A DNA stretch of 64,000 nucleotides, taken from the NCBI GenBank assembly GCA_965178125.1, contig OZ237761.1, positions 1 to 64,000 on the forward strand. The letters run 5' to 3'. Positions 13,902 through 54,161 of the stretch are shown here, one piece after another. The notes beneath the pieces are model-generated. The model saw only the letters and a list, made by a program, of their open reading frames with translations, did not search any database and was not told the origin of the DNA. Origin of the DNA: Bilabrum cf. latius. Its lineage: Eukaryota. The position numbers and the translations under genes are program-made. Numbering within the stretch: the first letter of the stretch is position 1; each line of letters begins with the position of its first letter.

Positions 13902-14271
13902 GGCTTTGATCCAACAGCAAAAATGTCGGCAGCGCAATCTGCTCCATCTTGCAATGTTCGGAGCCGGTAGCAGAGCTAATACTGTCCTCAGTTCACTCGC
14001 AAAGCATGTGTCATGGCAGCCGCGTCGATAGTTTCTCAAATTACGACAGAATGTACTGGCAGTACGGCTCTGTGGAACGTGCAGAGATGAGTGTAGTGTC
14101 AACTTCTGCAGACCGTCCGACGCAGTCCGGAATTCATAATTGAGCTTGCCGAACGTTGGGGGACACTGCAGCAAGGCAGGAACAGCAGCACCAATACTGT
14201 TTTGCAGTCTAATGCGCATTCCATAATAATCGTTTGGACTCTGGATTGGCCGGCTCAGTGACGAATTCCGC

Positions 14272-18016: not shown

Positions 18017-18372
18017 CTGCCCTCTGACGACAGCATGAGACTCCGGCTCGTACAGATGCACCAATCTTGCTGAACACACCGCCACATGGCCCGTTTTGAC
18101 AGTACCGCACAAAAATTGCTCTCTAACACTCGATACTAACTCACGTAGCTAGCCAACGCTGGTGGTGTCGACTGTAGATCTGCGACATTCGATAGATCAT
18201 CAGGCAGGTCTGCCGGTGGATCCGCCAATATTCGGAGCCACAATGCAGGAAGCTGCCGGTCCTGAACACGCAGGCAAGAGAACCTGCGACGAAAACGCAG
18301 TAAACTTCAAATTTAAGGCAAAGAGTTGTCTACGAGAGCGCCGAGGCGTCGCCAAACGGCGAGCTAGTTGTC

Positions 18373-21300: not shown

Positions 21301-24300
21301 GCAGACAGCCACCGGGCTGCCGATCCTTCCGCGTCCCAGGCAGCCATCCTCAACCCGAATCCGCCACTGAGTGCAGTCGCAGGCCAGGCACTTCTAGTTG
21401 CCGACGCAGAGGCAGTCCGGTGGTCCTCTCCGCAGATGCAGGTCAGGCAAGAGCGACAGAAAGCCTCCTGGCTGGGAGATACGGCTGGACACGGGGCTGG
21501 CACTGATGAGGCGATGCCGTGGAGCGAACAGCTTGCAATGCAAGCCTCTCGTCACACCAGCGACTGGACCGCCAGCTCTCAGCCGGGATCCATCGCGAGG
21601 GCCAGGCAGAGGATCGCACGGGCCTCCAAGAGGAGGACCAGGCGATCCACCGACGGGCGTGGTGGAAATGTGGGGCGCCTGCAGCAGGAGCACCCTAGGG
21701 CAGGTTTGCCCCGCAGGTCGGTGGCCGCGGTCAGATCATCAAGGCGCGGGCTCGGGTCGATAAGTCGAGCAGGGAGTAGCCGTCGTGTGAGTCATGCGGG
21801 TGACCTGCATGGGTAGACGGCCAGGGATGGGCGAGGAGGCGATGATTCGAGCTCCTCGGATGATGACTCGCCTGATGCAGCCCAGCCGCAGGTGTTGCCT
21901 GTGCTGGTTGCATCCTCGGGTATCCGAGCGGTAGCTAGCGCTTCCTAGCCATTGCTCGGCCGTGTAGTGCTCGCAGCAGACACCCTGGTGCTGACCTCGT
22001 CTGGGGGCTGGGACGAGGCGTTGCACCGCATTGAACCAGCCGAGACCAAGCTTGCAGGTGCCACAGGGGAGCATGATGGGAGATCGACATCAGGCAGGCC
22101 CAAGGGTGCCGGTACCGCCTCCAGACGCGACGTTTCTTCAGAGGTGCTTCGGCTGATCCAGCAGCAAGGCACCAGCGGCCCCTTCAGGAACATGTCCAGC
22201 CGAGGACACCGCGGGCTCGGTGTTGTCTCAGAGCTGGGTATGTCGGCAATGGCCCATCCCATGTCTGCCGCCGAGACCCTGGAGCTGTGGGACGCGGTGC
22301 TGAGCGCGCAGCGAGGGACTATCACTTTCGAGGGGGTGCACTCGCTGCAGCCAAAGTTCGACTTCAGGCTCACGGTGTCTCAGTTTAGAGCACAGCTGCT
22401 GCGCACAGCAGAGGAGCCGCTGCTGGGTCTGTACCTGGATGTGATGAAGGTGCGCGGGCTGATTCGGCCAAACGATGTCTACGATGGCGCCTTCTCTGTT
22501 GGGCAGATGCACGGTGACGCGCTGTTTGGTACGGAGGGAAGCATTGGCCGGGGGCAGCTCATTGGTGGCTCTATGCTGCTCGACAGGCGAGTCCGCAGGT
22601 GGATCAGCTGGCAGCCGCGTCTGCTGGCACTGCCTGCTCTAGGTTAGGGTGGAATCGCATAGACTAGCCGTTCGGCCACGGGAAGAGGTGGCCGTGCTCG
22701 GAGCAAGGCTGCGCAAGCCCCAGCATCCACACTTCGGGCCGCACCAGGCGCTGAGGTGGCCCCGTCGGTGTCTTCGACAGCGGAGGGAATCCGTGGGTGG
22801 GCAGCGAGCCACTCCCTCAGGCAGCTCATGGATGGCCTGGCGAGGGCGGTGTGCAGAGGAGGGCTTGACGCGTGGGCCGGTTCGTCCGCCGTCAATGCCG
22901 GCTATGCCGACGGTGGGTCGGCGGATAGATCTGCTGGGGTGGAGAGGTAGAGTGAGGGCTCGGTGGCCCGAGATTCGGCTGGCACTGCGTCTTCCTTGCT
23001 GCATGCACACCTGCGGGCAGCTGGCATGCCGAGCGCGCCGGGAGGATTCGACCGCTTTGCCTAGTACGTGGCACACGCGCTTGCAGCCGACTGCGCCGCC
23101 CGAAGCAGCGTGCCAGGCAGCCTTGAGAGGGTCAGCATCGTGGCAGGGGGTGATCGCGCCATCCGAGCCGGGGGTCGGGGCCCTGCCGTGGCTCGCTTCC
23201 ACAAGGTGGCCCAGCAGGCCGTGTGGCGATTCTTCCGGGGGATGCCCTCCATCGCTACAATTTTGCTAGACGAGTGCCTGTGCCGGCAGCTGGCGAGCTT
23301 CTGCGAAGGCCGTGCCAGGTCGCTGAGGAGCGCGCCTGATCTTGAGCTGCAGCTCAGTAGAGGCGACTACGCGTGTGCTGCTGAGGGCTGGCTGGAGCGC
23401 CGGGTGGCCCACGGCACGCCGCGAGCCCTCTCGACAGAGGCGGCATGTGAGGCCGCAGCCAGGGCTATTCTCGCCAATGGCGTGTCTCGTCTTGTCCCTG
23501 GCCTGGCAGGCCGCAGTGGCGGTAGCAACGGGGTTGAGCCTGACCCCAGCTTGATTGCCAGTGCCACCGCCATCGAGGAGCACGCCCAGCGGCTGGTACA
23601 TGCCCTCGAACAGGAGGCCAGGGCAGCCAATGCCAGCTGCTCAGGAGTATTGCCGCCCATGTTTTCCTCCGGTCGCGGGCCAAATACCAGCAAGGGGCGT
23701 GAAGCGCGCCCCAATCCCGCCGGCTTGTCTGCCTCCAATGGGGTGTTACGGAAAGTTCCCGCACTGAGGGGGAGCCTCGCGAGGCGCTGGAACCGTTGGC
23801 TGGTGGCTTGCGTTGCCCCGGAGCTGATCCGTCTGTGGCGCAGGTGTGAGGAGGTGACGACCCACGTCGACGGAAACGACGCCAAGAGAGTGGCCGCAGA
23901 ATCGTGGCAGGAGCTGATGACAGCGCGCGCCCCATCTGGAGCAGAGGTGCCTTCCCGTCTCGCCCACCACGCCGCAGCAATGCTCATGGCAGAGGGGCGG
24001 ATGGAATCTGTGCCAGAGGCGAGGTAGCTCAAGCGGGCCGTGTGGACCGGCATTGGTGGCTATAATGGAACAAGCATGCAAGCTGGCGTGCAGAATGTAA
24101 CCGCGCCACAGTGTCTGCATCCTGCTGACGTGGAGCTGTGCTGGCCACCTGACGTGGTTGTGCAGGGGCGTGGCATCATTGGGCAGGCCCTGCGCTTCGT
24201 TGGCCTAGAAAGCGCCGTGGATTCTGCTCTGCAGGCTGCAAACGATCTGGGCGGGGGTCACGACATGCAACCCGCAGGGATGCATCCGTTGGCGCAGCTG

Positions 24301-27300
24301 CTCCGCAAGTGGGGTCACTCGGTCGCCGGCACGGGCGGGGCAGCAGACCCGAGTGGAGAGGAGGCTCCTGGTGAGGCGGCTGCTCTGGGTGCGCTGCAGG
24401 AGGGAGTGTCAGACATCATGCGCCAGCTGCAGGAACAGATCGAGCGGCTGTTGGACATGCATTGCATGGCGGCATTTATGGACTGCTGCTGGGTCCCCGA
24501 GTGGGGCTGTACCTCGTGGGCTGCGCACCAGCTGGGCCGACCGGTGGGTGCCTTTGCGCCCAGTGCTAGCGTCATCCGAGGACTTTAGACGCCGCTACAC
24601 CACCGCTTGAAGCATTAGGACAACCAAGGCGGCCCTTCGATCGAGCGTTCAGGAAGCAGGGAGGCCTCGCTGCAGGCCTCCCGATTTGCCGCGCTGGCTC
24701 TTCGCCTGCAGATGGACCTGGCAGCCGGTCGATCTACTGGACGGCAACTGGGGGAAGCACGTGCGGAAGGAGGCGCTGCAGAAGGTAGGTCCTCGCATTC
24801 TGAGCCCCAGGCATTGCAATCAGCCGAAGCAATACTGGCCGACACCAGGTGGGGCCACGAGGCCGGCGTGCTCGTGACTGGCTCCGAGCTGGTGGCCCGT
24901 GGCTCGGATGCTGCAGCTAGCGCAGCTGTATCCAAGGTACGGAGCCTCATGGGACAGTCCGATCACGCTGTTCTGCCCTCGAGCGATTTGAGCGGGTTTC
25001 AACTGCCAGAGCAAGCCTACCCTGTGTCCCACCTGAGGACCTGCATCGATCTATCCGGCTCCTATGCGGTGCGAGGAGGCGGGGCCCCGGCGAGGTCCGA
25101 AGACGGCATCAGCGAGACGGTGCTGCCTAGGCTGCTAGATGCAGAGCGGGCCACCGAAGAGCTGCATGCGGCGCTCAACAAAGCCATGCGCGAGCACGGG
25201 GGAGGTGGGGGCGAGGCCGATCTGTTGTCGATGCACCGCCAGGATGCGAACTCATTGCTGGTGGCTGCACTGCAGGAGCTATAGATGCCCGCAGCAAGGC
25301 GCATCGAGCAGACTAGATTTCAGGGCAGGTCAATAAGGACGTCTACAAGCGGCGCATACCGTGGCTTTGAAGCCCGGGTAGACGGCATGCCGAGGACTTA
25401 CGACCTGTAGCTGCAGGATGGCTGCATTGTTTGCCAGCCAGCGCAGTCAGATGCTGGCAGTCGATTCTTTGGTGCTGATGCAGATAGTGGCAGAACGCTC
25501 CAGCTGCCATGCAACGGGGTGGTACCGGGCCTTGCGGCCGGAGACCATCCCCTAATGGCTGCCCTAGTGAACGTGTCTGCAAGCCGTGTAGTGCTCGTCA
25601 AGGGTGGAAATGGTGCACGTGCTTCAGGTGCTGCAGGCGAAGGCAGTGCAGCGCGCTTGAGGCCAGTTCTGCAGAAGCAGACATCATGGCAAGCAAGCAC
25701 GCTGCACGCAGAGCTGGGCATGAACTCACCCGTGGGCACTGCCACAAGGATGCAGCTCGATTTGGAAGATGGACTACGGTCTGCCAGCTTGCCAAGAGAC
25801 CACGTGCTTGTATTTGAAGGTTCCGACACGGCGCATCACTTTGTGCAAACTGTGCGAAGCTATCTAGCTAGGGCTGGTGCGGCTTCGCGAGGGGTTTCGT
25901 CTGCGGCACACCCTGAGGCTCTGCATGGAGCAGTCCAGCAGAGGCTCAGAGAGATGCTTTTTGAAGGAGTCGGGCACGAGTATGGCAGCAGACTGGAAGC
26001 AAAAGGGGGCGGATAGGAGACCCGGAGTATGCGCAGCGGATTCGGAATCGATTTCATAGCATCGGTGGTGCAGGACAGGGAGGCATCGCAGCAGCTTGTG
26101 CCTGAGCATATGCCACAACACGCGGCCAATGCCTCCCTGTAGTGCACCGTGTCCTCCCTTCGACTCATGCTGGTACCTGAGGTGGCCATGCACTCCCTGG
26201 CTTTCATTGAGAGGGCACGGCTTGCATGGGTAGTCGCTAGTTTCTTGTTCCCACGGGTACATGAGTCGCTGCAGCCGTCAAAGCGGGTCACCAATGGATC
26301 CAAAGAGGATGAATAGGCGCGCGAAAGCGGTGACTCTGCCGATGACAGTGATCGCGGGAAAGGGGCGGCGGTTGGAGCAGGCAGCAGCGGCAGCGCAGAA
26401 TCGAGTGAAGATGAGATATATGAGGAAGACGAGGAGCGCAAGTCGGACGAGTCTGGATCCGGCGATGATCGTGATGTTGGCGATGGGCAGAGGCTTAGAC
26501 GTGGCGATACAGCCAGCAATGGGCAGTCTGGCGGTCGAGTGCAGGCAGTGCAGCTGCGCATTCGGCCTGCGGTGAATCTCTGGGTCGAGCGACTGACGGT
26601 GGTAGCCACAGAGTACCGGGACACAGCCGAAGAGGCTAGAGCCAGTAAATCCAGTGCCGACGAAGAAGACGATGGCTCGGTTGTAACGGATCAGCCAGGC
26701 TCGGTGGGCGGTGTGCGGCTGGGGCAAGGTCTCTCAGCATTGCAGATTGACCTCAAGGGCATGTCGATGCGGACTGCCGGGGCTGCCTAGAATGCAGCGG
26801 AGCTGATGCAGGCGGGCTGCATCCAAGACGCCCTGCGCTCTGTGCTGGATGGAGATGCCCCAAGCGACGGGCTGCAGTCTGCCATCCTTTCGCCGTAGAT
26901 CGGGATTGCAATGTCTCTAGAGTCGGCTCAGGCGCGGGTATTGCAGGTGGCCGCATTAATGCCAGCGGGAATTAGCGAGGATGAAGTCACAGAGGTAGCT
27001 CGCACGGCATCACAATAGAGAGACCGCGCGAGCGAAATGGACCGGCCAGCAGCACATCGCCCTCCTGCACCCGTAGAACAGCCCCAATCCCTGCGTGAGA
27101 GCGGTCAGGTGGACGTCGCGTCTGACGTGCTTCCTGTGCGATTCGAGGCGGATGAATGGGTGTCTGGTCTGGCAGTTCAGTGGTGTTCTACACTGCTGCT
27201 GCTCGAGGGTCTGGGGATCAGCGGGGTCATCGTGCCTGGAGGGACTAGTTTCCGGCAGCTTGGCAGATCAGCACGGGCCAGGTTTTATGCAGATGCAGAC

Positions 27301-30300
27301 AGCGGCGGGTCCAGTCCTAGCGTCGGGTACGGCGGTGAAGATGCTGATGACGGTAATGATGATGTGGTGGAGTACCCACCTCTCATTGGCTTGCGGTTTC
27401 GATTGCAGCACGCCGGCGTCATGCTGGGTGCAGGCACTGGGGAGGCACTCGTCCGTCTGGCCAAGCGGTGGGCCACTGTCCCGCTTCAGGTGCTGCACCG
27501 GGTGCAAAAGACAAGCGCTTTGTCAGACCGAAGGATTAGAACGATATCAGCGGCAGGGTCCATAGAAAAAGGCCGATCAGCACCCATCAGATCAACAGAA
27601 GAGGCGAAAGGTAATGACGCGAAGGAGGCAAGTTCCGACGGCAACAAGTCCAAGCCCAGACCCAAGGGTGCCCCCCTGGGTCTGGAAGCGGTGCGGGTGG
27701 TGATTGCATTAGAGCTAGCTAGGCTGACATTTTCGCTGGAGGGTAACGGCAGTGCCATGCACCGACGTGTACTCAGAGCAAACGATGCGATGAGCTCGGA
27801 TCGGTTGGTTGGACTCGGTCGGCTGGACGAGGCCTCCATGGCTGCTGCCACGTACAGTGAACTGCTGCGAGCGTCGGGCCACGGCCTGGAAGTGGGTATC
27901 TTGGCCACTGTGGCTCGCGGGACTGATCTCGAAGACATGGCCTACAGGGCGCGAGCGACGAAGGGAGCAGATGAGCTTAGCCCGCCAGGATCCGCAGAGG
28001 CCGCAGTGGCTCGTGCATTTGCGCCAGGATCTGCGATCGCGATTGCGAGGCTGCACATGGCCGAAATATGGGAACCGAAGGTGCAGCGCACTGCACGGTA
28101 CCATGGTAGCAGCGTGAGCACAACCGGGGAGCACGGGCGCTCCCGGGGCCGTCACCTGCTCACGTTGGTTGGAAACGGAAAGCAAGCGGGACCAGGATCC
28201 AGGGCTATTCGCGCTGTGGTAAGCGCTGGCTTGGAGCCCCACCCGCTCATGGACCTCGCTGGCGCGCAGTCTGGGCTGCTGAAGTTGCATCGAAATGCTG
28301 CATCTTCTGAGAAGAGGCCAGCAGAGGACAATGACGGTGCTCAAAGTGCCATCGATTTCATCCAAAGGAGCGTTGCAGCACAGGTGGGCGAGCTGCGGCC
28401 AACGCTGGATTTAGACGTGGATGTTCAACTAGGCCGGATCTATGCCACGTTGGAGTGGGAAATTGCGTCCCGAGTGGCCCTCGAGCTGGAGGCCATGAAA
28501 CGAGGCACTCTGCCGGCCATTGCAGAGCTGGCGGCTGTTCCTAGCCAGGTGGCACAGCTACTGACTACGCAGGCAGCAGGTGCGTCTGACGATACCAGCG
28601 CTGGCCCAGCCATGGCTCGGGCGGCTTCCACAAGAAGCGTCCTAGCTGCCAATGGGGATGATTCGCCCGGCAGTGAAATGCCGGATAGCCCGAGTGGGGT
28701 CGAGTCTGGCAGCAACGAGAACGACGATGATCGTGCCCGAGGGAAGTCTCTGGACTCTGCCGTCGAGTCTGTGTCTTTTCCTCAATTCATTGCAATTCGA
28801 ATGGCGCTGGAGGCAGAGCAAACTCGACTGGGAGTCTCCGCATTCAACACACCGCTTGCCGTGCTTGCCGCCAGAAAGGTAGCGGTAGCTGCATCGGGGG
28901 GCGCTGCGATGCTGCACGGGGCCGAAGACGCCTTCAGCTTTCTATCTCCAAGCAGTCGAGCCGCGAAGGGGCCAGCGGATCAGGGACTTGGTACTTTGAA
29001 GAGTGAAGCTGGATCGGACGCATCGATTGGAACCGATGACGCTGAGAGCGTTGCCATCGTTCTGGAGCGATTCAGGCGCCAGGTCATGTCCAGTGACAGA
29101 CTGCAGCAATCGATGCCGAAGGGTACATCTGCAGAGCTTAGTTTTGAGTGCGACTTTTTGGAGGCGGTGCTGGCTCGACCGACCGAGTTCGGGTGTCGTT
29201 CAGCCGTCCGCAAACGTAAGCAGCGCAAATAGGCTCTGGTGCGTCGGGGAGAAGACTCGTAGATCCGAAAGCTACGTGCGGCGACACGAAGGCCGAGCTT
29301 CTGGCGGCAGAGGCTCTCGGATGCACCGTCTGTCGGAGACACGATCTACTCGGAGGGTCAGACCAGGGTGGATGCTGCATGTCCTCCACTGCCTGTGTTA
29401 TGGTTGCTGACCCGCGCCAACACGGAGTTCTGGTCTGGAGTGCCGGGAGGCACCGTATCAATCAGCGGGGAACGCATCGCGGGTTCTCTCCGTGCTTCCA
29501 GCTACACTAACCAGCAGTCTGCGATGGATCTGCAGGCCTCCGTGCGACGACTTGCCCTTGCTGCGGAACAGGACCCGGCCGCAGTCCCCGAGGGGGTAAG
29601 AGCCTGCATGTTCCACAGCGATGCGGAGGCTGACCGTCAGGGGCAGGCAGGGCGCAGCGGAGGGATCCTGCCCACACCCGCTCACGCCCGCCAGGCCTCG
29701 TGGGGCGGGCAGTAGCGGGCGCCGAATAGGGGAGGATATCGGACGGTCAAGACGGAGCCTGGCAGCGCAGCAGATGGGGCGTGGGGCAGAGGGGCGCCGC
29801 TTCGTATCCAACGCCTTGCAAGCGGCCTCTTTGAGCCCCCGCCAGGGCGGCAACGACTGGCAAGCGTGCCAGTCAGCAGGTGCAGGCGGTGGCACGCGGC
29901 CTATCGGGAGTGGCCCATCCCGGCTTGGCAGTGGGTGTATGGCCTCGCGCGTCGGGACCATACACCCCGGGTCATCGCAAGACTGGGGCCGTGCAGATCA
30001 CCTCAGTCGGTACAGCGCATCGTCAAGCGGTTCGAAGCCCTAAAGCGGTAGAACTAGGGGTTTGGGCTAGCGTCACCTTCACCTGTATACCGCCAAGACG
30101 CCCCTCACACACCCTCTTCTCCGCATCGCCACTCACCCGTTCGCTCCTCTGGGGACGTAACTGATGTTGCAAGGCATGTATACGGCTCTGAGTGGTCTGC
30201 CGCAGCCGAAGCTGCCGCTAGCTCCGTCCCAGACTTGCCATCCGGGTGGCAGGAGGGTCTCTCGTTGTCCATGCTGCTGCCCACTGTTGTCACTAAGCAT

Positions 30301-33300
30301 GCAGGGCAACGGGCTAGACATGAGATAGCGGGCCGTAGTGCGCCAATGGTGCCATCTGCTGGACTTGACCGTCTAGAGATGGACGCCGTGGAGAGACAAG
30401 GGCTCGTGGAGAGACTGGCCCGAGACGACGCCAACCCGCTGCAGTCGGTCATCGAGATAGGAGCTGGCAGCCTGCACCTGATTACCGACCCGCTAGGCCT
30501 GTTTTAGCTGCACGAAACTATCGCAGTAATCAAAGAGATCCTGGGCGTGTTCCGTTTCTCGACTGTCACAGTTGAGAGTCAGGACATAGGGGGGATAATT
30601 CGAGGCGGGTCTGGCGGTATTGGTACTAGAGAGGAGGTGGGGCAAGGGCCTACCAACGGCTCCAGCAAGGAAGCAGACACTGGTGCTCGGGCGGGTGGTG
30701 TACGCAGCCGAGGTGTAGGCTCTGACGAGGGCATGCTATGGTAGTGGAAGCTAAGGGAGCAGTGGCAGCACGGCACGACCGATTACATTGGTGTGTCTGC
30801 CGCTGAGGCGCAGATCACAATGTGCAGTGTAGCGGATGCACTTCGATTCAAATGGTAGGGGCCTGGTGATGGGTCCTATCATGGGGGAGCTGCAGCTGAG
30901 GGGGGCTCACTGGGTTCCCGGCAGTTCGAGGGCCTGGAGTGGTTCTTTGGGCACCCTTGCGTGCGAGGCCCCGTAGCAGAGCACATGTGGCTGGTGGGTC
31001 AAGGTATCGAGGTGGAGGTATCGTCGAGGCAGGCCACGCAGCACCAGGCTTGGGAGCTCGAGTGGAGGGATGGCAGGGGTGCCTTGAAGGAGGATCTCAA
31101 GGGGTCAATTGAGTGGGTCCAGACCATGGTGCGTATGGACGGCGGACAGGGACTACCAGGCAGAAACCACAGCCAGTTTGGGCCAGACATGCCAGCATCG
31201 CAACCAGACGGCAAGGGGGGTGGATCAGGCAAGGCATAGCAAGCAGTTCCAACGGAGCAACGAGTGTGGATCGCGCTGCGACACGACCAAGCAAACTTAC
31301 CGAAGCACATGTCAATCCACATTCGGATGGGTGGGGCCTCAATCACTGACGTCAGTCCCAGTCCGTACACTTAGTTCCCCGATGACGTGGAGGAACAGGG
31401 TAGAGATCGGACTGGGACAGCAGAGTCAGGAGCTGGAGCGAACGGGGACTCGCCAGACTCGAGCTAGTCCCGGTATCCTCCGGCAGGCACCCCTTCACCT
31501 TTCTCCCGCGCCCGAAGGTGCATGCCGCAATCGCTTCGAATGAACACCGACCTTGCCCGACCAACTGGACCTGTTGGTCTAGGTGGACGGCGGGTTGGTT
31601 GGGTGAAGCGGAACGCTGCCTTTGCATGGACTCCGCCATTCGACCCTCTTTCAGTCGACGCGCCTAGCCTCATGTTCCCTCTGCGGGTGGCATTTCGCAA
31701 GAGCATGGCAGCTACCACTGCGGCTGTTCGTAGGCGGCTTGAGGCCCTCAAAAACGGCGATGTGGTGGCAGCTGCTGTGCGACGATCGGCTAAGCGGGAG
31801 GCAGACACGCGCGGCAAATTGAGCGCCATCGCTGAGGCACGCAGGCGAGCCATGGGGGGAATGGATTTCCAGGGGGATGGGCCTACCCGTGCATCAATTG
31901 CTTCTGATCATGATACTGCCGCAGGACCTGGGCACGAGCCAGACGAGGACAAGGGTAATGCCAAAGGCCGTGCTGCAGGAGGCACTCCAAAGCCGATCCT
32001 CGGTGCCGGAGGTACATCAGAGGGGCAGGATAGCGATAGCAGCTAGAGCACCACAAACGGCGCGGCAGTGGAAGACACGCAAGCGACAATCACGCGTGGA
32101 GACCTACTACGAGAATTGTTTTAGCCAGACGGTCTTGGGTCGCGGGTGTGGTACGCTCGCGAGCTGGGCTGGGCCATGCCTTGCGGGCTGCAACCGTTGG
32201 TGGAGCTGGCAATCGCGGACGCGGAGAAAGCAGCTGCTCGAAAGCAGGATGTGGTTGCAGGAGAATGGTACTTTTCTGACGAGGACGAAGATCGCGATGA
32301 TGCCAAAGACAGGCGTGAAATAGAGCAGGGCAGCAAGGACGAGGACGGACAAGCCGATAGCGCGGGGGGAGAGGTCGATCATCGGAAGTCACGAGGCAAA
32401 ACGGGGGGCATGGGGGCTACAAGTGACGTGGCGAGTGCGACCAGTCACAGGACGGACGGGAGCGACGAGGAGACAGACCCCGGCTGGCTGGACCTGCGCC
32501 GAGGTGACACGCGCCTGGACCAGGAGAAGGTTGCCAAGCAAGCAAAGGAACGCAGGAAGCGCGCCGCTATGCGCCTCGTGCTCAAGGAGGAGCTGTCGAG
32601 GGAACAAGCCGCGCTAGAGGTCAATGCCATCCTGGTGGCGGGCTCTCCGGGAGTACCTGGGCTGGCTGCATGCGCTCTATCGCGACAGATGAATGCGTCA
32701 CAACCGCGCACAGGTCTGCTGAGCGTGCGGCACAAGGTAGGAGGCCCTCGTCTACCGGTTGCTGCACTGCCTGTTCTCGCCATCATGGCGGCAGAGAGGC
32801 ACAAGACTGCGCAGCAGTCGGTGGCTTGCGGACCCACGGAGCTGCCCAGCCGGGGCAAGTTCCCGATGGCTGTGGACGTAATCATGCCCATTGCACTGCC
32901 GGACTTCCTGCCTCCCGCCTCTGCTGCTCCCGGTGAGTCGCAAGAGGATGCAGAGCAGGATGCTGCAGCGGAGCGCGAGCTGGCTGGCCTGGACCGAGTG
33001 GAGCTGGAAGCAGGGGGTGCGGCAGCGGTGCAGCCTGCACGAGTTCCTTCCGGCCCTGTGGACTAGCAGCACGGCGACCCTGGCTGCGGTACGGATGCAG
33101 AGCTGTTTGCATTCGAAGGGGCGTATGGCAGCAGGGAGGATAGGTGTGACGATTCGATTCCCGCGACATACTGTCCGCCCATGGCCCGAGCGTTGGAGGA
33201 CTACCCTCAGGCGTTCAAGATGCAGATCACGGTGTGCGCGGACCAGGGGACGGTTTCCTTTGTGCCTAGGTTCGTGCTGAAGGAGTTCGCCCCTTCCATC

Positions 33301-36300
33301 GGTCTCACCATCGACGCATTCAACGGAAAGTCGCCCTGGGCCGCGCTGGACGCCGTCCCCAGGCCGCCCACGAACCCGCCGATTAGCCTGCAGATATTCG
33401 CGTCGCGGACACGAGCCCTTGTGCCACCGCGGTGCGACGTGGATGGTACGCCTGACGGAGACAGGGAGATGACCGGGCACTCTGCAGCGGGAGGAGGCAC
33501 CCGCCCCGGCACCGATGCCAGTCTGCCCCGACCGACGATGCTGCTAGCTGCAGCCCGTGCCATCAGTATCCGGCTGTCTCAGAGAGTGGGAGCAGCTGCA
33601 CTCAAACCAGACGTCGTCCGACCCTCAACCGCTGCTGTCGAACAGGCCAGGCGCCGAGAGTGGCAGCGCCTGGCAATCGACGTGGATGCGGCGATGGCCG
33701 AGAGCTGGAGCGTGGAGGGGCACCCGACTGACCCCACCAAGAGAGCGACTGAGAGCACGGTGGCGTCGGTGCGCCGCCGTGCCATGCGGGTGCTTGCTGC
33801 TGAACGGATGGGCTCCATGCGAGTGCCCCAGGTCATGCTGCGCCCGAGGCGGCTGCACCTGCATCCCCTGCTCCCACTCACAAACGACGTGATCCACGAC
33901 CCCGCACTTGGGCTGATGCCGGTGCTCGTGGCCGGAGGGGGGGGGGCTGGGTCTGGAGCGGGCGGGTCGGCGAGCTAGGGCAAGCACCATGGTCCGCGAT
34001 CTGGGCCCGGAGGCCGAAGGGGCGCCTAGATTCACCAGCCCCGGGTTATAGTACCCACGATGGTGATAGAGATTCGGTCTGCCAGGGGCATCCGGCTCGA
34101 AGCAGTGGAGCCGGGGCAGCTGGGCGCATCGTTGGGGATTGTAGCTCCGGGTCTAGTGCCTGTGCCTCCCCGATGGCTCCCCTCTCGCATCGATCAGGTC
34201 CCAATGCACGGGCCATGGGAGCGCGCGCCCTAGCCCCCATTTGTACGTCCTGTCCTCTAGTCCGGAGACGAGGTGCTGCAGAGCCTGGCAGAGAAAGACT
34301 GGCTGTTCGGGCGGGGCATCATGCAGCACGATGCGCTGCAACTGCACGATTTCATCAGAGCACACGCGGCACAAGACGTCGAATGGGACCCGCAGGGAGG
34401 AAGCGGGCGCGGGAGGGGCCAGCGGCACGGGCGGACTCTTGTGGGCAATATGCCAACAGAGCTCGGTGGCCATCGGGCCTAGGATGGCCTGGCCACGAGT
34501 GCAGCCGCTGCGGAGGGCATCGCTGCCCCGAGTCCCGCTGGATTCTTCTCGGACCATGCCGCTGCGGAGATGAAGCAGATCTGGGTGTCCTCCGGCAGGC
34601 AGCTCGACCAGGCCAAGACAGCGGGGGAGAGGCTCAAGATGCTCATCCGGCCTTTCATGGAGGTGCATCGCACGATAGGGCTGCAGACGCTTGCACTGCC
34701 GTAGTGGCAGCGGCCTTGGTTCAGCGAGGCTAGCTCCGCACTGTCGAAGCGCGATCGTGCAGTGCAACGCGCCATCATGGGCTGGGCGAGGCCAAGCTCG
34801 CAGGACGCGGAGAGGAGGCGCGGGTGGGAGTCCGAGAGCTTGGTGGAGGCGGGGGTGGGGAAACCGAAGTGGGCCATGTATGCAGGCAGCCTGCAGGTTT
34901 GTCTCCGACAGGTGCACGGCGAGGGTGCGAAGCTCCTGGCGGAGACGCAGCTGGCCATCGACGTGGTGGTGCCAGCTGCCATCTATGGATGGAATGTGGC
35001 GCACGCCGGGCCGCACGCGGGCGGTCCTGTGTCGCATGCTGAGGGCAGGCCTGGGTAGATTCACACAGACATTGACACGGGTTTAACCACCTCGATCTTG
35101 TCAAGCGATACTGGGCTAGGCGGGGTGGAGCGTGGTAGCGCAGACAGCACCGGGCAGGGCGCCGGCCACGTTGCGAGGCGGCTGGCAGCCCCAGGCGTAC
35201 AGATCCCCGAACTGATCGCAACCATGCAGCACGTGGTGAAAGCCTTAAAAGAATTGTCCCCGATCCTGCGGTTTGCTCCCGACTTCGAGTCTCGTTCTGC
35301 TCCAAAGTAGTCTCTGGAGCTGCTGCCAGAGTCTTTGCCAGGCCCTGACGCCGTTGACATCCCCGTATACATGCAGCGGGAGCCGCACAGGGGTGCAGCG
35401 CTGGCCCAGCGAGAGAGACAGGGGGATCCAGGGGCCCTGTCGCGTGCAGCAAAGGCGTGGCCAGGACGTTGGTCCGCATTCCGGGTGCGTATCGTTGAGA
35501 AGCAACCCAAGCAGCTGGTCCTGCGGCATTGCCCCGTAGCTGATGACCCCCGAGATGAGCTCACGATGGACGCTCCCGCATCTCCTTTCATTTTCGGGGG
35601 CCTGCACGAGCACCTGGAGAGGCATGGCCCCTACCCTATTGGAATGAGGGGGTGGGCTGCGCGCCTGCTGAAGGGGGCTGGGGTATCTGGTGAGGCCATG
35701 TTCGACGGTGGTGGGCTAGAGGGCATGCTGCGAGCGGCTTCGCTGCATATAGGCGGGGGCCAGGGCGGCCTGCAGGTACCAGCAGCTGCAGTGGCATCCC
35801 TGCCTCTGGCTCTCGCCCTCCCGTTCGCCACCCGGGCGCAGGCATCTCTGCATCGGTTCGTGCTTGAGCACCTCAGGCAGGAACAACGTTTGCAGGGGGT
35901 GGGCAGTGGTCGGGCCAGGGGGGCCGTTGCCAATAGGAGAGGTGGCGGACTTAGTAGGCAGACGGGACACTCAACGGATCTGTCTCCAGACAGGCCTCCA
36001 GAAAGCGAGTTACCAATGCCAATCGGCTGGCAGCTGCCCGGCCGCACCACCGGAAGGGAACTCATGGCAGAGCTCACTTCCAGGCTGCATCTGTCGGACT
36101 ATGCAGGGGCAGTGCAGTCTCCCACAAGCGCCGATGAGGTCGTGAAAGCGGGTCTTCCCTACGACTGGGAGGGCGAGGATACTGCCGTTCCTGGTCTTGA
36201 GCCAGATGGTCCATCTCGGGCCCACAAGGACAGTGCAGACGAACGGGAGGATGACTCGCGGAGGCGTTCAGCTTCAGCTACTGCAGTACAGTCGAGGATT

Positions 36301-36906
36301 ATGCCCATGCCAGCTCCGGACGGGCAGGCACCAGTCCCGAGCGGGGGCCTAGACAGCACGGGTGGCGACAGCAGCGCCAGCAGCGGGCTGGAAGGCATCC
36401 TGTCGGCAGAAGACATTGCGGCGATCGAGCAGGCCCAGGAGGCGCAGGCACTCGTGCAGAGGGTGACGAGTGGCATGTCCGGTGTAGAGAGGAGGCCATT
36501 GATTGACGGCGTAGTGTTCAATGAGGGTGCCAACCGGGAGCAGCCGGAGGCGGAAGAAGCGGCCTAGCAGGACTTCAGGGGTGCGGAGGGGCGGAAAGGG
36601 TAGGAGGAGAAGCGGGGGTCTCCAGCACCAGGGCATGGCCGCATGGGCGGAGGCGTGGACGATGTATCAGCGGATGGGAACAACGACGACAATCCGCTGG
36701 AGGCTCTGCGTGACTGCGCTGCGCTGCTGCGTGGAGGAGAGCAGGCGACACCGGGTGGGTCGGTCGATCTGGAGGCGGTTGCCAGGGCGATTGAAGCGGC
36801 CAGTCGAAAGGTAGAGTCTCAGCTGGCGGAGCAGTAGCGATCCATTCGATAGCTGGCCGCGCAAGGCGCCGAGCTTGCGACTCTGTTGGCTGACGGTGAC
36901 ACATGA
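18373..36906 (+). CDS. Giant single-exon protein (~6,177 aa with TAG=Gln); N-terminus chorein-N-like, candidate VPS13/ATG2/BLTP bridge-like lipid transfer protein
   Basis: 18,534-nt frame from ATG 18373 to TGA 36904-36906 with ~52 TAGs and no TAA/TGA (gaps between track ORFs read manually). The N-terminus ALKSYFP...KLRLPFE...IELISVQLDVSKL...LPVEVVVEGVHLRMQ and MVPGLNLSVRDLTLVVED resemble chorein-N. Alternating-hydrophobic beta-strand segments recur along the length. The ORF is secure; the family is an inference. Confidence 0.8.
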
Positions 36907-37241
36907 GGGGCGGCTGGGCATCGTGGAGAGGTATGCCTCTGTTCCAAGGGCCACATTCGTGATCAATACGCGGGGCATAGGTACCCATGGAGGGTATCGC
37001 AATATTGTTTACATATAGCGCAATAGTAATAATACCCCTACCAAGTAAACCCAACCTCAGGCTACCACTGTAGATCTGACCCTGTCCCCACCATGCCAAC
37101 CAGACGCGACAGTGTGGATGTTCAACAAGATGTCGCGGCGCCTCACGGCATCCATTGGTTCCGCCACGAACAATCCCCCACTTTAAGCTGCAGTGACTGC
37201 GCAAGCAGCGCTCCATTAAATCACCAGGTGGAGTCGAACCC

Positions 37242-44551: not shown

Positions 44552-47500
44552 ATGAAAAGCCGCACAGCAATCCGCAGCAATTCGCATGTTAAGTCTACTG
44601 TGATTCAAAATCCGATGGTCGCAGGGCGAGCATAGCGCAGTTCTCAGCGATCCCCCCTTGCGACCGATACGCCCGCACCGGCGGAATCCGATTCTCAGGG
44701 CCAAGATGCAACTTCAAACGAGTGGAACAACTACTTAGACAAACAAACAGTATCGCTAAAGGTTGCACGGCCACGGGTACGAGTTGATGTTTGCTCTGCT
44801 GCTGTATTTGCGGAACGGCAAGCCAACAAGCAGAATCCAGATGGACTCGCAGGATATTTCGCAAGCACGCTGTCGTGCGGAGCGTGCGATGATCCTACGG
44901 TTCAGTTCAACGTGCTTCATCCAGTTTCGTGTGAGTTCGTACCCAATCAGACCCCCATACCCGCTACAAGAAGCCCTTTCATATGCTCGCGACGGTCTTC
45001 AATGCCATGTCTGCAGTGCGGCTCACACCTGGTTCGCTGACCATGGTGCTTTCAAACCCTGGAGGTGGTACAAGCACCCTGCTGAAGCTTATTTCGGGGC
45101 GCCAGCTTCCGCACGAGGGAGAAGTTATGTTCAATGGATGCAGTTCCGTCGATCTCCAGCGAGTCTCTGGGGCGGACCACCGCAGAATTGCATCGTATGT
45201 GGGCTAGGCTGACGTACACGAGCCAATGTTTTCAACGCGAGAAATGTTTGAAGTAAGATTTTGCATATTAAGCTGCCATGGTGCCCCGCTTAAGTGACTT
45301 GCATGGTTCAATGCAATCTCTAGTCGACGCCACCTGGGCGCAGTTTGCTGCTGGAGCTACGTTTGGAGGCATGCAGCAAGAGATTGCGGATTCTAAAGAT
45401 AGATTCCTATTTCAGCCAGCGGCTCGTGCCACCGCAATGCTCAAACTGCTGCGGTTGGAATCCTGCGCCGACACGAGCGTCGGCAGCGCAACCATTCGGG
45501 GCATAAGCGGCGGCCAGAAGCGCCGAGCGTCTCTCGGAGAGGTGCTCTTGACCGAACCACGGGTGCTTTGTGGGGATGAAATCACCGCAGGTCTTGATGC
45601 TGCTGCTGCCGAAGAGGTGGTGCTCCGCCTCAGGGAGTATGCCCGAGTTACCGACGCGACCGTGGTGCTTGCGCTGAAGCAGGCCACCCCGGGCATGTAC
45701 GAGTTATTCGACGAGGTGGTGCTCCTAAGTGACGGGCACGTGATCTACCACGGGCCTAGAGAGGAGCTCGAGGGAAACCTGGCGGCCAGGGGGTTCCCCC
45801 CGCCCCAGGAGGGGGACTTCTGCGACTGGCTAGCCGCACTCGTCACAGACCCCGCCTTGGCCACACCTGCTGGTCACACGGGACCTGTCCCGACAGCAGA
45901 AGAACTGTCGACTGGTGTCAATGGCTGGTACCGCAGCGACGCCTTTAAGAGGCACGTCGACCGGCGCTCGCCCCCTAGGTCGGCACTGGGGCAGCAGCTG
46001 CTACCCCAGGGGCAAGACCCAAGCGCTGACTACGATGACCTCGGGCTGTTCCTGCGGACAAGCCCAGCCCTTGCCCTGCGGTTCGGAGAGGGTAGTAGGA
46101 TGAATTTCTGTTCGAGGTTCGGCACTATGATGGCGAGGCAGGGCAAGCTGATGTGGAGGCACCCGGTGCTGACCAGGGTCCGCTGGCTCGAGTCCATTCT
46201 GCTGGGGCTGCTGTATGGGGCGGTTTTCTTCTAGCCCGACGTGAACGATTTTGCGCCCAGGCTTGGTGTGAGTAGGCTACGTGTCAATCGATTGTGATCG
46301 TCGAGTGCATTTGCCGAACCCTAGCTCTTCTCTGTGCTCGCCGGTTTCTATCATCTCGACCGCTCGCAGCTCGCAACTGTAGCGCTGGTGCACGTTGCTT
46401 TTGATTTTGCCGTGAGTATTCCGAACGCCACTGTGCCATGCATTTGCTAGACATCATAGGCGTGCGGACGTCATGTGGCTGTATTCTGCTCATTTGCTAG
46501 TTCCGCAGGAAGTGCACGCTGGTATTGACGGCAGAGCTGTGGCGTACAAGCTCTCCCGGTCGGGCATATTCGACGACTTCATGTACATCCTTGCAGTCTG
46601 CCTTGTGCATGCCCCAGTCGCCCTGATCAACGGACTGTGCTTGACTGTGTGCGTCTATTTTCTTGCCGACTACTCACTGGAATTCACTCGATTCATGGTA
46701 TACTGGGTGGTGCTGTTCAGCGCACAGATGGCAATGTCTGGTTGGTTTAGGATGCTGACTTACATCAGCCCGTCGTTTGAAGTGGCGCACACGCTTGGCG
46801 GCACTGTAGTTGGAATCTTCCAACTGACGGCGGGATTCCTGGTGACCCGCACCAACATCCCCATGTTTATGCGATGGCTTTACTACGTGAACCCGCTCAG
46901 CTGGGCGCTCCGTAGCCTGGCATTGAATGAGTTCTTCGCTACCAGGTACGACAAGCCTGTGGAGCTGGGCATAGAAGGGATACGCAACGGGACGGTGGGT
47001 CTACATACCTACCAAGCCATGCAAAACAACTCGAGCACGCTTAGAAAGCGAGAGGCCTTCCTAGCCGTCTTCGACATCGAGGATGATTCGTAGCTGGCGT
47101 GGATGTGGGGAGCTGTGGCGTACATGCTGGGCACATGGTTCCTCTTCGGCATCGTTCTGTCCTACTTTGCTCTGGCCAGCTGCAAATATGACTCGAGGCC
47201 GGGGACGCAGCGAGTGTATGACGAAGGCATCCGCAGGCAGCTCTCAAGGAGGCGCTCCTTCATGCGAAAGCAGTCCCTGTCTACCGCGCGGTCCATCAGC
47301 TCTGCCAAACGGGCTGCTACTGGACCGAGCGCCAGCACCGAAGAGGACGAGTTTAACATGGTAGGGGGCTTCAACAGAACCAACGCGGCTGACACGTTGG
47401 AGTTAGACACAGTCGAGCTTGATGCAGGCACCACCACGTCCTGCCATGAAGAGCCGTTCCATGTGCCTTGTCCTGCCAGTTCAGACGTGGAGAGATCTGG

Positions 47501-49583
47501 TTCAAGCATTCAAGACGGGAACGTTCAGTGTGTCCCGGTCGAGCTGGCGTTCAATGACATTCAGTACGTGGTATCTGTGCCTTCTTCAGGCAGTAACCGC
47601 GCAGGCACCGCACTCTCGGAATCATAGCAATTCCATGCATTTGATGCTCTTCGGGCGTAGGCAGGGTATACCCATGTAAATGGCCGTGCGGGTGGTATCG
47701 GCTCTGGCCCCATCGCTGATGGCGGTGCCAGTCAGCTGCCACTGCTCCAGGGAGTATCCGGTATTTTCAGACCAATGCGTCTAGTTTGCTTGATGGGTGC
47801 GTCAGGCGCGGGAAAGACAACATTACTGGATGTACTCGCTGGCCGCAAGACCCAGGGCACGGAATCAGGCGTCGTTCGTCTAAATGGGCGGCCAGCATCG
47901 AAGCAATAGCGGGCTTCCTTGACTGCATATTGCGAGCAGACCGACCAGCACTTGCCGACATTAACGGTCGAAGAGTCACTGGATTTCTCGGCTAGGCTGA
48001 GGCTAGACGCAGATACTGCAGAGAACGAGAGCAAACGGCACGCAATCGTGAGCCATGTTATGGAACTGCTTGAGCTAGACTCCATCAAAGGCCGGCCTGC
48101 TGGCTCTCTGTCTGTCGGCGAGGCCAAGCGCCTCACCATCGGCTGCGAGCTGGTGGCCAACCCGAGCCTGCTCTTCCTGGACGAGCCAACTACAGGGTTA
48201 GACTCTAGATCTGCCGTGCAGGTGATGCATGTGCTGCAGAATGTGGCACAGACAGGTCGCACCGTGGTTTGCACGATCCACCAGCCGAGCTATGACGTGT
48301 TCACATCCTTTGACGACGTGCTACTGCTAGCCAAGGGCGGGCGGCAGGTGTACTTCGGTCCCATTGGCGACCACTGTGAGGACCTGGTGAGGCACATCGA
48401 GGCACATCCAACTGCTACACTGCGCCCGATCAGAGTAAATCCGGCAACTTGGATGCTAAATGAGCTGGAGGCGGAACGGGAACGAGTGGACGCATTATTG
48501 GCAGGCGGCGGTACATCCGGTACGGAGGGCCAACCCCTGGTACTTAAGCAGCTCAGATCGAGCCTCCTTTTTGAGACGTTCAGGGACTCCTAGGCATTTG
48601 CGTCTTTATCCCGGGAGCTAAAGCACAGCTAGGCTGCCCATTCATCCGCTGCCGGGCGCACGCAGGCTCGCACCAGCAAGTTAAACGACCTGGCTAGATT
48701 CGCGGCTGTCCTAGAGAGAACCTTTACGGACAGCTACCGTGATATAACCTTCAATGGATCAAGGTTTACAACCCTAGTTATGCTTGGACTCATCTTTGGC
48801 TTGCTGTTTTTCGGGTTAGATTTCACGTCAAGTCAAGGCGGCGTGCTATCCATGGTTGGGGTGCTGCAGAGCATGGCATCCTACAGCGGGATCCAGTCAC
48901 TTGCGGCGCAGGTGGTGCTACTATACAAGTATAGACCGAACTTCTACAGAGAGAGGGCACTTGGGATGTACGGCACCACGACCTACTACCTGACTATGGC
49001 ACTGAAGGAGGTCGTGTACCTCGCCTGTCTTTGCGTGGTATTCACTCCGATTGTGTACGCCTTCGTTGGGCTTCGGTTCGACCAGATCAGCGTGTTTGCC
49101 GAGACGATAGCCAGCGTATTCATCGTGGGGTTGCAACTGTCCCTCATGTCACAGTTCTTTGCTGTGGCTTTTTCGAACGTGCACACGGCCGAGTTTTTCG
49201 TCGGGGAGCTGTTGCTCATCCAGACCATTTTCAACGGGGTATTCACGTCGGGCGTACAAAACTACAAACCTGCTCTGCGCTGGCTGGCGTACCTGAACCC
49301 ACTCTTTCTCGTAAATGTGCCTCTGGCCCTAAACTAGGCTCACTGCTTCGATGCTGGGCCCCCGGCTGACGAACTAGCTCGTATTGAGGCCGGGTGTCCC
49401 ACAATTTCCGTGGTGAACAACGGTGTCGAGCTGGTGCAGACGGTGGAAGGTTATGTAGAGCAGCTAGTGGACGCGACCTATGCGGAACGTTGGAAGTACT
49501 ACGTCGGAATATTGGCGATCACTGCTGGGTACCAGGCCCTTGGGTACGTGCTTGGGCAGGTGCTTGACTTCTAGAAGCGCTGA
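44552..49583 (+). CDS. Full-size ABCG / pleiotropic drug resistance (PDR)-type transporter, NBD-TMD-NBD-TMD, ~1,551 aa; exons 44552-44930, 45017-45252, 45344-46267, 46370-46411, 46509-49583
   Basis: NBD1: [14 protein letters not shown][TAG][28 protein letters not shown]2: [74 protein letters not shown]. Two TM blocks; C-terminus LDF[TAG]KR-TGA. 11 in-frame TAGs. Start could be 44615. Confidence 0.93.
44931..45016 (+). other. Spliceosomal intron (86 nt, phase 1)
   Basis: GTGAGT...CTGCAG. Removal gives [20 protein letters not shown], matching the PDR pre-Walker-A segment. Confidence 0.8.
45253..45343 (+). other. Spliceosomal intron (91 nt, phase 0)
   Basis: GTAAGA...GCGCAG. Removal gives STREMFE|FAAG (family pattern TVRETLEFAA). 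Confidence 0.85.
46268..46369 (+). other. Spliceosomal intron (102 nt, phase 0)
   Basis: GTGAGT...TCGCAG, preceding a 42-nt hydrophobic exon [14 protein letters not shown]. Confidence 0.72.
46412..46508 (+). other. Spliceosomal intron (97 nt, phase 0)
   Basis: GTGAGT...CCGCAG. Removal gives [18 protein letters not shown] (family pattern AE......R.VFYK). Confidence 0.75.
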
Positions 49584-49756: not shown

Positions 49757-51910
49757 TCAGCGAGTTGCCATCCCAAGCGGAGGCACCACCCAGACAAACT
49801 CCTCGGCAATGACGCGCCCAGTGCCCTCACCAGGGCATTCCACAGCATGCCCATCGCAAGACTTGCTGCAGCTCCAGACGAAGACCGATAGAAAATCAGT
49901 CCCTAGCAACAGGCCGGCCGGAGCGCCAGCAGGGCGGCCTGTTTCTGCTTCTGCTATCAGGGACGGCAGCAGCTGCACCTCAAAATCGCAGGTAGCGCCG
50001 CACCGGCGGCACGGTGGCACGGTAGGCCTCACCTTTGACGAGGCCGGGGGTGCACCTGTTGGCCACAGGGGTTCGCCGCCGTACGCATATCGAGCCAACT
50101 ACCGGGGCGCGCAGGCCACTCGTGCTCTAAACGCATCCAATGAAGCCTTTATTACCAGCGACGAGGCGCCGCTTTGTCTAGCTGCGCACACGCTTCCGCC
50201 GATACTGGACTCGCCACCTGAAGACCCCTTCCCCTTGCCATGAGCTCCACGCCTCAATGGCTTCCCCTTCCCTTTTACAGTGCTTCCGTCACCAGAATGT
50301 CCAGCAGTTCTCCATCCGCCCGTGCCTCGCCCCGCTAATCCTGGTCCCTCCTCTTTCTCCGCCGTCTCCGATCTCCAGCTCGCCACTGAGGAAGCCGTTG
50401 AGCGCCGGCCTGCCCCACTGTTGCCTCCCTGCGGCCGCTATCCTCGCATCCAATCCCTGCGCAGGTCATCGTCATCGCTGTCGTCTTCCTCCTGGCCCGG
50501 CCCCATGCTTCGACTAGAACCGATCGATCCGTCTCCAGGGCTTGTTCCCACCGCAGTGCTCGGCAACAAGTCCAGAAGAGATCCTGCACCCGCACTCGCG
50601 GCATGCTTCTCGTGCTTACCTCTGCCTTTTCCCTTTCCTTTCTCTTTGCCTTTTGGTGTGTGCAGTGCATGCTCAGCCCCTCCCTTGGCTGCACCACTCC
50701 CATCGCCGCTAGTCATACCGGCGTCTTCCTTCTCCTGTGCAAGGTACCTCTGATAGAGCTCTTCAATATGCGCTGCGTCCCCACTACCTGCAGTCATCGC
50801 GCCGGTTCCAGATCCCGCTGCACTCCTGCCGGTCCCTACCCTTTCCCTGTCTCTTGCTTTCTTTTCGGCAGTCAGGGCCTCCCACGGCTCCTCCTCGCAT
50901 TTCACGGGCATCACAGGCAGCACGATTCCGCTGTCCGTGCCCGCGCCTGGCCCGATCGAAGGGTCCATACTAGCACCTGCTGCTTCCGCTGCACCAGTAG
51001 CAACAGGGGCGCTACTAGTTGAAGCGAAATCAGTAACGCCGGCATCGGAGTCCTACTTTGTCACCCCCGTCGCTGTGCTTCCCACCTGCCTGAACGTGCT
51101 AGCAGACCTGCTGGGTGATCCGGAGGTAGCATCTGCCCTATCTGAGTCTGGCGCTGGCCCAGTGCCGTGCGACTATGTATCTGGCCCGATACAGGCAGCA
51201 AGATCAATGCCTTGCGTAAGCACAGGGCTGCCACTAGCAGGGTCAGAGGGATCGGCTGCAGCTGCAGCGATCGATCCAGTGGCGGAAGGACCCGAGCTCG
51301 TGCCAGTGGTCGGCTCTGTCCAATCCACTGCTGCTGCAGTGTCCCACGGATTTGGTTCGCTGCCAGCAGCCTGGTCTGGGGAATCCACTGCGGCCCAGTC
51401 CGCTGCGCCGTCCTCCGTTGCCTCACCCTCTGGGACCGGGTCTCCAGGGGCGCCCCATGCGCTGCTCGTGTCTTGGTCCAGCCCGGACCAGTCATCAGCG
51501 GCATCTGGTGTGACACCAGACGAGCTAGGTGCGCTAGGCTAAGTCGGACTAGAATCATGACCAGCTCTTGTACTGGAGGTTGGCTCTACTGACGGCTCCG
51601 CCGCCCTGCCGCCTGGGGCTTGGCTGCGAAACACGCGTACTGTTCCAGGCAATCCAGCGCAGTCACTGCGGCGACATACGAACGTATTCAGATATCTCTT
51701 CTCAGTTCCGTAGCATGGAGCGTGAAGCTGCATCAAGTGAATCATTTTGTCGCTGCAATTTCTGCATGTTGGCGTTCTTCGCGGCAACGGTGGTCTCGGA
51801 GCTCCGCCAACGAAAGATGCTTGTGACAAACTTGTGGTTTTCCCCTACAAATCGCAAGACGCGACAAGTAAAACTGCCTCTTCATGCGATCTTGGTCCCA
51901 CAAACGACAT
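49757..51910 (-). CDS. PDCD2L: PDCD2-like / Tsr4 family protein (uS5 chaperone, PDCD2_C domain), ~717 aa
   Basis: Minus-strand frame from ATG 51910 to TGA 49757-49759 through 6 TAGs. N-terminal SFVGGAP...CRNCSDKMIHLMQLHAP...RYLNTFVC....C...VRVFRSQ. C-terminal AFRARVACAPR[TAG]LARYAYGGEPLW...PPCRRCGATCDFEVQLLPSL...DF.SVFVWSCSKSC...EEFVWV. No MYND finger seen. Confidence 0.87.
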
Positions 51911-53835: not shown

Positions 53836-54161
53836 TTTTATGGAATTTGTTTTGCGAGTGCTTAGAGCCAGGCCCCGGTGAGCTTTGTGAACGTTGTGAC
53901 GTGACGCACGCGCATCGGTGCAACGCTTGAGGATGCGACTGGTGCAAGCCTTGCGAACCTACTTGCATGGTTACGGTTTACATTTGTTTGCTTGTACGAC
54001 CAGAATATAGAGACTCTCTCTACGGCAGTGGCTTCAAGTTGTTGTGAAGGAATCATACTCATCACGATCCGCTGGCATCCAGCGGTGTAGTCTACACTGG
54101 CACTAGCGCAACCTGAAGCTACTTGTCCTAAATCCCAAAGGCAAACAGTCTGTGTACCTGT

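Follow-up and report, generated by a model that had tools for sequence, protein, structure and literature searches.

Changes to the nuclear genetic code are rare, and the reassignment of UAG alone to glutamine (Gln) has been reported in three lineages, all of which use UAA as their main terminator according to the sections of the two reports drawn on here (PMC5304391, PMC11687900). In the fornicate Iotanema spirale UAG encodes Gln, UAA and UGA are stops, and UAA is the primary terminator (PMC5304391); in the phyllopharyngean ciliates Hartmannula sinica and Trochilia petrani UAG alone has passed to Gln and UAA is the preferred stop (PMC11687900). The rhizarian exLh and uncultivated phyllopharyngeans have reassigned UAG alone to leucine (Leu; PMC5304391, PMC11687900). 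Here we describe the first 64,000 nucleotides of contig OZ237761.1 (assembly GCA_965178125.1), hereafter the window, and in it a gene for an ATP-binding cassette (ABC) transporter of the PDR/ABCG type that carries an in-frame TAG at position 45205, within its first nucleotide-binding domain (NBD1). We consider it highly probable that UAG stands for Gln throughout the nuclear genes of this organism, that UGA (mostly) and UAA terminate translation, and that the TAG at 45205 specifies the Q-loop Gln of NBD1.

The code of the window matches the known type in which only UAG has gone to Gln, the pattern of NCBI translation table 15: UAG is found in frame in coding sequence, UAA is not used as a sense codon, and UGA serves as a stop. 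As in I. spirale, UAG alone is reassigned to Gln and UAA stays a stop, but UAA is the main terminator there, as far as the sections of that report drawn on here describe it, and TGA takes that place here, ending nine of the 11 long open reading frames (ORFs) considered below. We further set against I. spirale the ~60% G+C, the introns of 86-102 nucleotides and the CCCTAA telomere repeats of this chromosome. H. sinica and T. petrani share the reassignment of UAG only to Gln and differ, in the sections consulted of the report describing them, in preferring UAA where TGA predominates here. Positions 1-2281 of the window hold 380 CCCTAA copies with 99% matches, a telomere, and a 54-bp subtelomeric repeat (3.9 copies) occupies 2280-2485; the window is therefore the chromosome end of a well-assembled eukaryote. 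So long a chromosome end, with at least 11 genes, is unlike the gene-sized macronuclear molecules of ciliates with their C4A2/C4A4 telomeres. The codes in which both UAA and UAG (UAR) are read as Gln (NCBI table 6), used by many ciliates, dasycladalean green algae and hexamitid diplomonads and also by aphelids, resemble that of the window in the capture of a stop by Gln and in the inferred mechanism, a suppressor tRNA-Gln together with an altered eRF1. They differ from it in TAA, which they read as Gln and which has no sense meaning in the window.

That TAG is a sense codon is seen across the window, whose G+C content is ~60%, and not in the transporter gene alone. Reading TAG as sense raises the number of ORFs of at least 300 codons from 25 (11,595 codons) to 40 (30,860 codons), the longest reaching 6200 codons, whereas reading TAA as sense brings almost no gain in ORF length. 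Frame 0 of 12 ORF segments (17,749 codons) contains 130 TAG, no TAA and no TGA, against 67 and 52 TAA and 267 and 340 TGA in the two off-frames, although the frame-0 zeros arise partly by construction, the ORFs having been delimited by TAA and TGA. We therefore take the ORF lengths as the evidence, since these, unlike the zeros, are not set by that delimitation. From the 529 CAG and 157 CAA of the same segments one would predict ~39 TAA, had this codon too stood for Gln, and none is observed. Eleven long ORFs end inside the window, nine at TGA and two at TAA. The intronless 6200-codon ORF, the largest gene of the window, has 52 TAGs and is open only if these are sense (Table 1), and the reassignment is thus not confined to one gene. 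Neither this ORF, searched against Pfam at E <= 0.001, nor an ORF of 1839 codons returned a Pfam family, and the 61 TAGs of the two accordingly lie outside the comparison of homologue columns that follows.

The transporter gene is predicted, from its domain order and its homologues, to encode a full-size PDR/ABCG protein of reverse topology, in which each NBD precedes a transmembrane domain (NBD-TMD-NBD-TMD). Along 44.9-49.6 kb the Pfam matches run ABC_tran, ABC2_membrane, ABC_tran, ABC2_membrane, and the best of 6163 homologues at E <= 1e-20 are PDR/ABCG proteins, with at most 41% identity over at least 96% of the query region. Positions 45190-45225 read GCA TCG TAT GTG GGC TAG GCT GAC GTA CAC GAG CCA (A S Y V G * A D V H E P), in the frame of the NBD1 Walker A motif SNPGGGTST (45052-45078). 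An earlier note on this DNA had read the NBD1 site as ASYVG-TAG-ADVHEP and the paralogous position of NBD2 as TAYCE-CAG-TDQHLP; sequence and frame bear out this observation in every detail, NBD2 reading TAYCE-CAG-TDQH with its CAG at 47937.

For the identity of the residue, each TAG in the translation of the spliced ABC gene was written as X, and the protein was aligned with its 120 best homologues, which comprise plant, green-algal, oomycete, Cafeteria and metagenomic PDRs. Eleven TAGs lie past the putative start, eight of them in columns of 50% occupancy or more. The column of 45205 is that of the Q-loop, with Q in 119 of 120 homologues and A in the remaining one in the MAFFT alignment, and with Q in 106 of 108 NBD1 alignments by BLASTP; by itself it gives Gln +4.5 bits. 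Two further columns are mostly Q: that of 49335 (103 of 112, with Glu in three) and that of 49572, in a C-terminal ..FQKR motif (86 of 111, with Glu outside the four commonest residues). At 46232 the homologues have R (81), Q (17), K (7) and D (5), Q being the residue of the nearest ones, P0004 and P0010; the column of 47907 is mostly T, those of 48591 and 48630 are variable, and that of 44633 is taken up below. Weighted log-odds for the whole gene come to +16.2 bits for Gln, -6.5 for Asp and -6.7 for Glu, and with 45205 left out Gln still scores +11.7 bits against -3.9 for the next residue. Q is the majority residue in only 16 of 1291 aligned columns, and three of the eight alignable TAGs fall on these (hypergeometric P = 8e-5). 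As a control, the scoring was repeated on eight-column subsamples of 55 ordinary sense codons from this gene, and it gave the correct residue in an average of 84% of trials.

A neighbouring gene with a PDCD2_C domain supplies another such column, at 50099-50101 on the opposite strand (Table 1). Searching 1.84 billion proteins, we took the 150 best cluster representatives; among the 145 that cover the column the residue is Q in 143 and H in two, with neither Glu nor Leu in any. A metagenome scan for close relatives sharing the code yielded six loci, none closely related (34-65% identity), and all six have Q in this column, written with ordinary Gln codons. As these alignments have it, the PDCD2 TAG is an independent Gln column and a more discriminating one than 45205. 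A PDB search with the PDCD2_C piece gave chance-level matches only. We also note P0121, a metagenome protein that shares 71% identity with the C-terminus of the PDCD2-like protein, far more than any other hit, and whose contig the locus scan did not bring up; its length of only 80 residues raises the suspicion of a gene call truncated at an in-frame stop.

The ABC gene, the PDCD2_C gene and a Cdh1-like gene taken up below together offer 12 alignable TAG columns, over which Gln totals +18.7 bits; Ala is next best at -8.8, with Glu at -12.1 and Leu at -16.0.

The structure of the transporter gene was arrived at in two ways. A homology search had predicted introns at 45253-45343, 46268-46369 and 46412-46508 before contigs of public runs were compared with the gene. 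The contigs of runs X5 and X6, from two studies, omit four GT..AG introns of 86, 91, 102 and 97 nucleotides, which are exactly the three predicted ones and a fourth at 44931-45016, and are otherwise at least 99% identical to the genome; the contig of run X1 is collinear with the genome. Such precise removal of four introns is most simply explained if the X5 and X6 contigs are spliced transcripts. The spliced model is a single open frame of 1574 codons with one terminal TGA, which falls exactly where the homologues end, and an in-frame TGA at 46295 is intronic, upstream of exon 4. Exon 5 contains eight of the TAGs (47091, 47625, 47658, 47907, 48591, 48630, 49335 and 49572). Exon 45017-45252 has no differing letter in the X1, X5 and X6 contigs, from three studies; because the TAG at 45205 is identical in all three and kept after splicing, assembly error and RNA editing can both be set aside.

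The same contigs show spikes of depth and clustered variant letters at short conserved motifs of the ABC gene (45639-45815, 48117-48293 and 48825-49001), where loose contig ends run into other sequence, a pattern that points to additional PDR paralogues of this organism with these stretches in common. Runs X1, X5, X6 and X7, which bear four organism labels and come from four studies, contain 65-99% of the gene's sampled words; either the sequencing covered several strains or the organism occurs together with others.

If UAG is Gln within genes it might still terminate in some contexts, as in the ambiguous codes of Condylostoma and karyorelict ciliates. Such a code, of a kind known from the literature as far as it was drawn on here, would add to the reading of UAG as Gln, but nothing in the window requires UAG termination, and for each of the 11 long ORFs a TGA or TAA is available as the stop. 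The TAG at 49572, three codons before the TGA of the ABC gene, also argues against it: reading through it yields the conserved ..FQKR end of the protein, and even a stop-adjacent TAG is therefore decoded. We hold an ambiguous code to be unlikely.

The amino acid itself calls for closer argument, because the NBD1 of this transporter is unusual. Its Walker A lacks the canonical Lys, which 106 of 108 homologous NBD1s have, and shows Thr instead (45070-45072), and its Walker B keeps Asp-Glu; NBD2 has a canonical Walker A (GASGAGKTT) and the signature LSVGE. NBD1 is probably a deviant, non-hydrolytic ATP site, as the Walker A Thr suggests, and selection on its Q-loop residue may be relaxed because the site is deviant. 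Among solved structures, exon 45017-45252 is best matched by three of fungal pumps, Cdr1 (9iuk), Pdr5 (7p03) and Cdr1 (9s2c). The section of a report on Pdr5 drawn on here gives its Q-loop residues as E244 in NBD1 and Q951 in NBD2, with a degenerate nucleotide-binding site 1 (PMC8421411). The gene described here resembles Pdr5 and Cdr1 in its full-size NBD-TMD-NBD-TMD plan, in an NBD1 without the Walker A Lys (Thr here, Cys in the fungi) and in an NBD2 with canonical Walker A and Q-loop; it differs in that the fungal NBD1 Q-loop residue is Glu, where TAG, read as Gln, stands here. The combination typical of deviant fungal NBD1s (Cys, Q-loop Glu and a Walker B without the catalytic Glu) is thus absent, its place taken by Thr, Gln and Asp-Glu. 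To judge from these motifs the pump is probably asymmetric like the fungal PDRs, through different substitutions, and the protein may work as an asymmetric pump while not being a member of the fungal Pdr5/Cdr1 group. A single-gene tree, which contains no fungal sequence, places the gene as sister to a Cafeteria-containing clade with Q at the column; this placement on the side of a bicosoecid stramenopile is a hint only, branch support values not having been read. A search for longer relatives with the NBD1 exon alone gave 26 candidates, none of them significant, and added no more deviant NBD1s.

Several points weigh against UAG being Gln. At the column of 45205 the three solved fungal matches, none of which has the Walker A Lys, carry Glu; P0059, a top-five NBD1 match with Ser in its Walker A, carries Ala; and among the NBD1s compared here that lack the Lys only one of five (P0044) has Q. 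Two of the 12 TAG columns are hydrophobic, both in poorly aligned N-terminal stretches: 44633 (ABC residue 51), with L in 75 of 93, and 14800, with I in 47, L in 41, V in 19 and M in seven. The latter TAG (14800-14802, plus strand) lies in a short motif before the WD40 propeller, in the low-complexity N-terminus of a Cdh1/Fizzy-related gene at 14230-16548 (predicted exons). Five other TAG columns are variable and uninformative. To these we add the partly constructed zeros in frame 0 mentioned above, the failure of ARAGORN to find a tRNA gene in the window, and the status of the X5 and X6 contigs, which are only guessed to be RNA, X5 being marked 'probably DNA' and no run being listed as RNA.

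The Glu residues at the 45205 column would fit a reading of TAG as a sense codon for glutamate, like UAR in Blastocrithidia, as would E244, the corresponding residue of Pdr5 (PMC8421411, in the section drawn on here); Glu moreover ranks first at one variable column and second at another (ABC residues 1245 and 1258). Over the 12 columns, however, Glu falls some way below zero while Gln is strongly positive; none of the 145 representatives has Glu at PDCD2_C position 50101, few homologues have it at 49335, and it is outside the top four at 49572. The tree likewise groups the ABC gene with Q-carrying homologues of the Cafeteria clade, fungi being absent from it. We judge glutamate very improbable. 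Glu is excluded by the column in PDCD2 together with the two further ones of the ABC gene, and the identification of Gln likewise depends on columns other than 45205.

The earlier note had argued that the Q-loop Gln is among the most conserved ABC residues and that the NBD2 CAG serves as an internal control fixing the amino acid at 45205 as Gln. The conservation stands for the 120 aligned homologues, with the reservation that deviant NBD1s have Glu or Ala, and the amino acid is supported by the 12 columns, although 45205 alone fails to exclude Glu. The comparison it proposed with other PDR NBD1s agrees with Gln in all but one of the aligned homologues and gives Glu for the fungal Cdr1 and Pdr5, and where it had counted on close homologues showing no other residue in this column, P0059 has Ala. 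Taken by its column alone, the TAG at 45205 favours Gln, yet it is a weaker witness than the note had argued. It is a valid but not decisive site: several sites show UAG to be Gln, and others are more discriminating.

Leucine has the precedents of exLh and the uncultivated phyllopharyngean lineage (PMC5304391, PMC11687900, in the sections drawn on here), with which the window shares the reassignment of UAG alone, and it would suit the two hydrophobic columns at 44633 and 14800. Those columns, however, sit in weakly aligned N-terminal regions, with gene structure predicted, Leu is absent from the strongly conserved columns of 45205, 49335 and 50101, and its score of -16.0 bits over the 12 columns sets the window apart from those lineages. 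We give this reading hardly any credence. No close relative came up for either the ABC or the Cdh1-like gene: local identity in a search with the WD40 region of the latter did not exceed 54%, and its hits intermingled green algae, Perkinsus, oomycetes, plants and Cafeteria. A C-box was not noticed in the Cdh1-like ORF.

That the TAGs are true stops in decayed pseudogenes, sequencing errors or codons edited to CAG in RNA is next to impossible, with no supporting point found and with ORFs of 6200 and 2379 codons free of TAA and TGA but bearing 52 and 12 TAGs, an identical TAG in the runs of three studies that is unedited in the spliced contigs, and TAGs on conserved Gln columns.

UAG would be decoded as Gln by a dedicated tRNA-Gln with the anticodon CUA, and eRF1 would no longer recognise UAG. 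Leaky readthrough by near-cognate tRNAs could not account for a product with 52 UAGs, since passage at 95% per codon would leave only ~7% of chains complete. An Rfam scan of the window found no RNA family, and the eRF1 gene lies outside the window.

It is quite possible, though we lean slightly the other way, that the window represents a new and independent origin of a code in which only UAG has become Gln, in a GC-rich protist that is neither ciliate nor metamonad, with TTAGGG-type telomeres, short GT..AG introns and a PDR gene nearest those of bicosoecids, and that it is the first such code with UGA as the main terminator. If this is true, Gln can capture UAG without AT pressure and without UAA as the dominant stop. 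The code is a further case of a known kind, possibly in a lineage for which it is new. For bicosoecids, for labyrinthulomycetes and for any GC-rich protist assembled from telomere to telomere, our search, whose scope excluded subscription journals and supplements, brought up no report of nuclear UAG reassignment. A GC-rich case that terminates mainly at UGA would be an independent data point and bears on how the recognition of UAG and of UAA by eRF1 can be separated. In practical terms, annotation with the standard code would fragment most of the long genes here, among them the one with 52 TAGs. For method, the lesson is that a conserved catalytic residue, when it sits in a deviant copy of its domain, is a weak guide to what a codon means; the argument here depends on other genes and on columns away from the deviant site.

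Table 1. Positions of the TAG codons, exons and open frame on which the analysis draws, numbered from the first letter of the window.
Feature	Position	Strand	Basis
In-frame TAG, NBD1 Q-loop column, ABCG/PDR gene	45205..45207	+	sequence, frame, homologue column, spliced contigs
NBD2 Q-loop CAG, paralogous column	47937..47939	+	sequence
ABC exon 1, from first in-frame ATG (putative start)	44552..44930	+	3' end: joint 44930>45017 in X5, X6; open frame
ABC exon 2: NBD1 Walker A (45052-45078) and Q-loop	45017..45252	+	GT..AG joints 44930>45017, 45252>45344; Pfam ABC_tran
ABC exon 3: NBD1 signature, Walker B, TMD1 start; TAG at 46232	45344..46267	+	spliced contigs, model
ABC exon 4, 42 nucleotides	46370..46411	+	GT..AG joints 46267>46370 (X6), 46411>46509 (X5, X6)
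ABC exon 5: TMD1, linker, NBD2, TMD2, TGA stop 49581-49583	46509..49583	+	Pfam, homology, spliced model
In-frame TAG, P-x-Q-x-x-R-Y motif, PDCD2_C domain of neighbouring gene	50099..50101	-	Pfam PDCD2_C
ORF of 6200 codons, intronless, 52 TAG, 0 TAA, 0 TGA; open only with TAG as sense	18304..36906	+	ORF scan, codon counts

Some other genes of the window may be mentioned. The ORF at 37197-44336 (plus strand; 2379 codons, 12 TAGs, no TAA or TGA) has as its sole Pfam match a C-terminal zinc_ribbon_16 domain, a type known from WD40/RING proteins of the GATOR2 kind, MIOS among them; all 12 of its TAGs lie outside this domain. Two genes on the plus strand, at 7177-10245 and 54132-57578, encode fungal-type Zn2Cys6 clusters together with long low-complexity regions, and when they were compared as possible paralogues for the reading of TAG just the zinc-cluster motif aligned. 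The gene at 7177-10245 has the highest density of TAGs in the window, 17 in 1022 codons, many of them in stretches rich in Gln, Gly and Pro.

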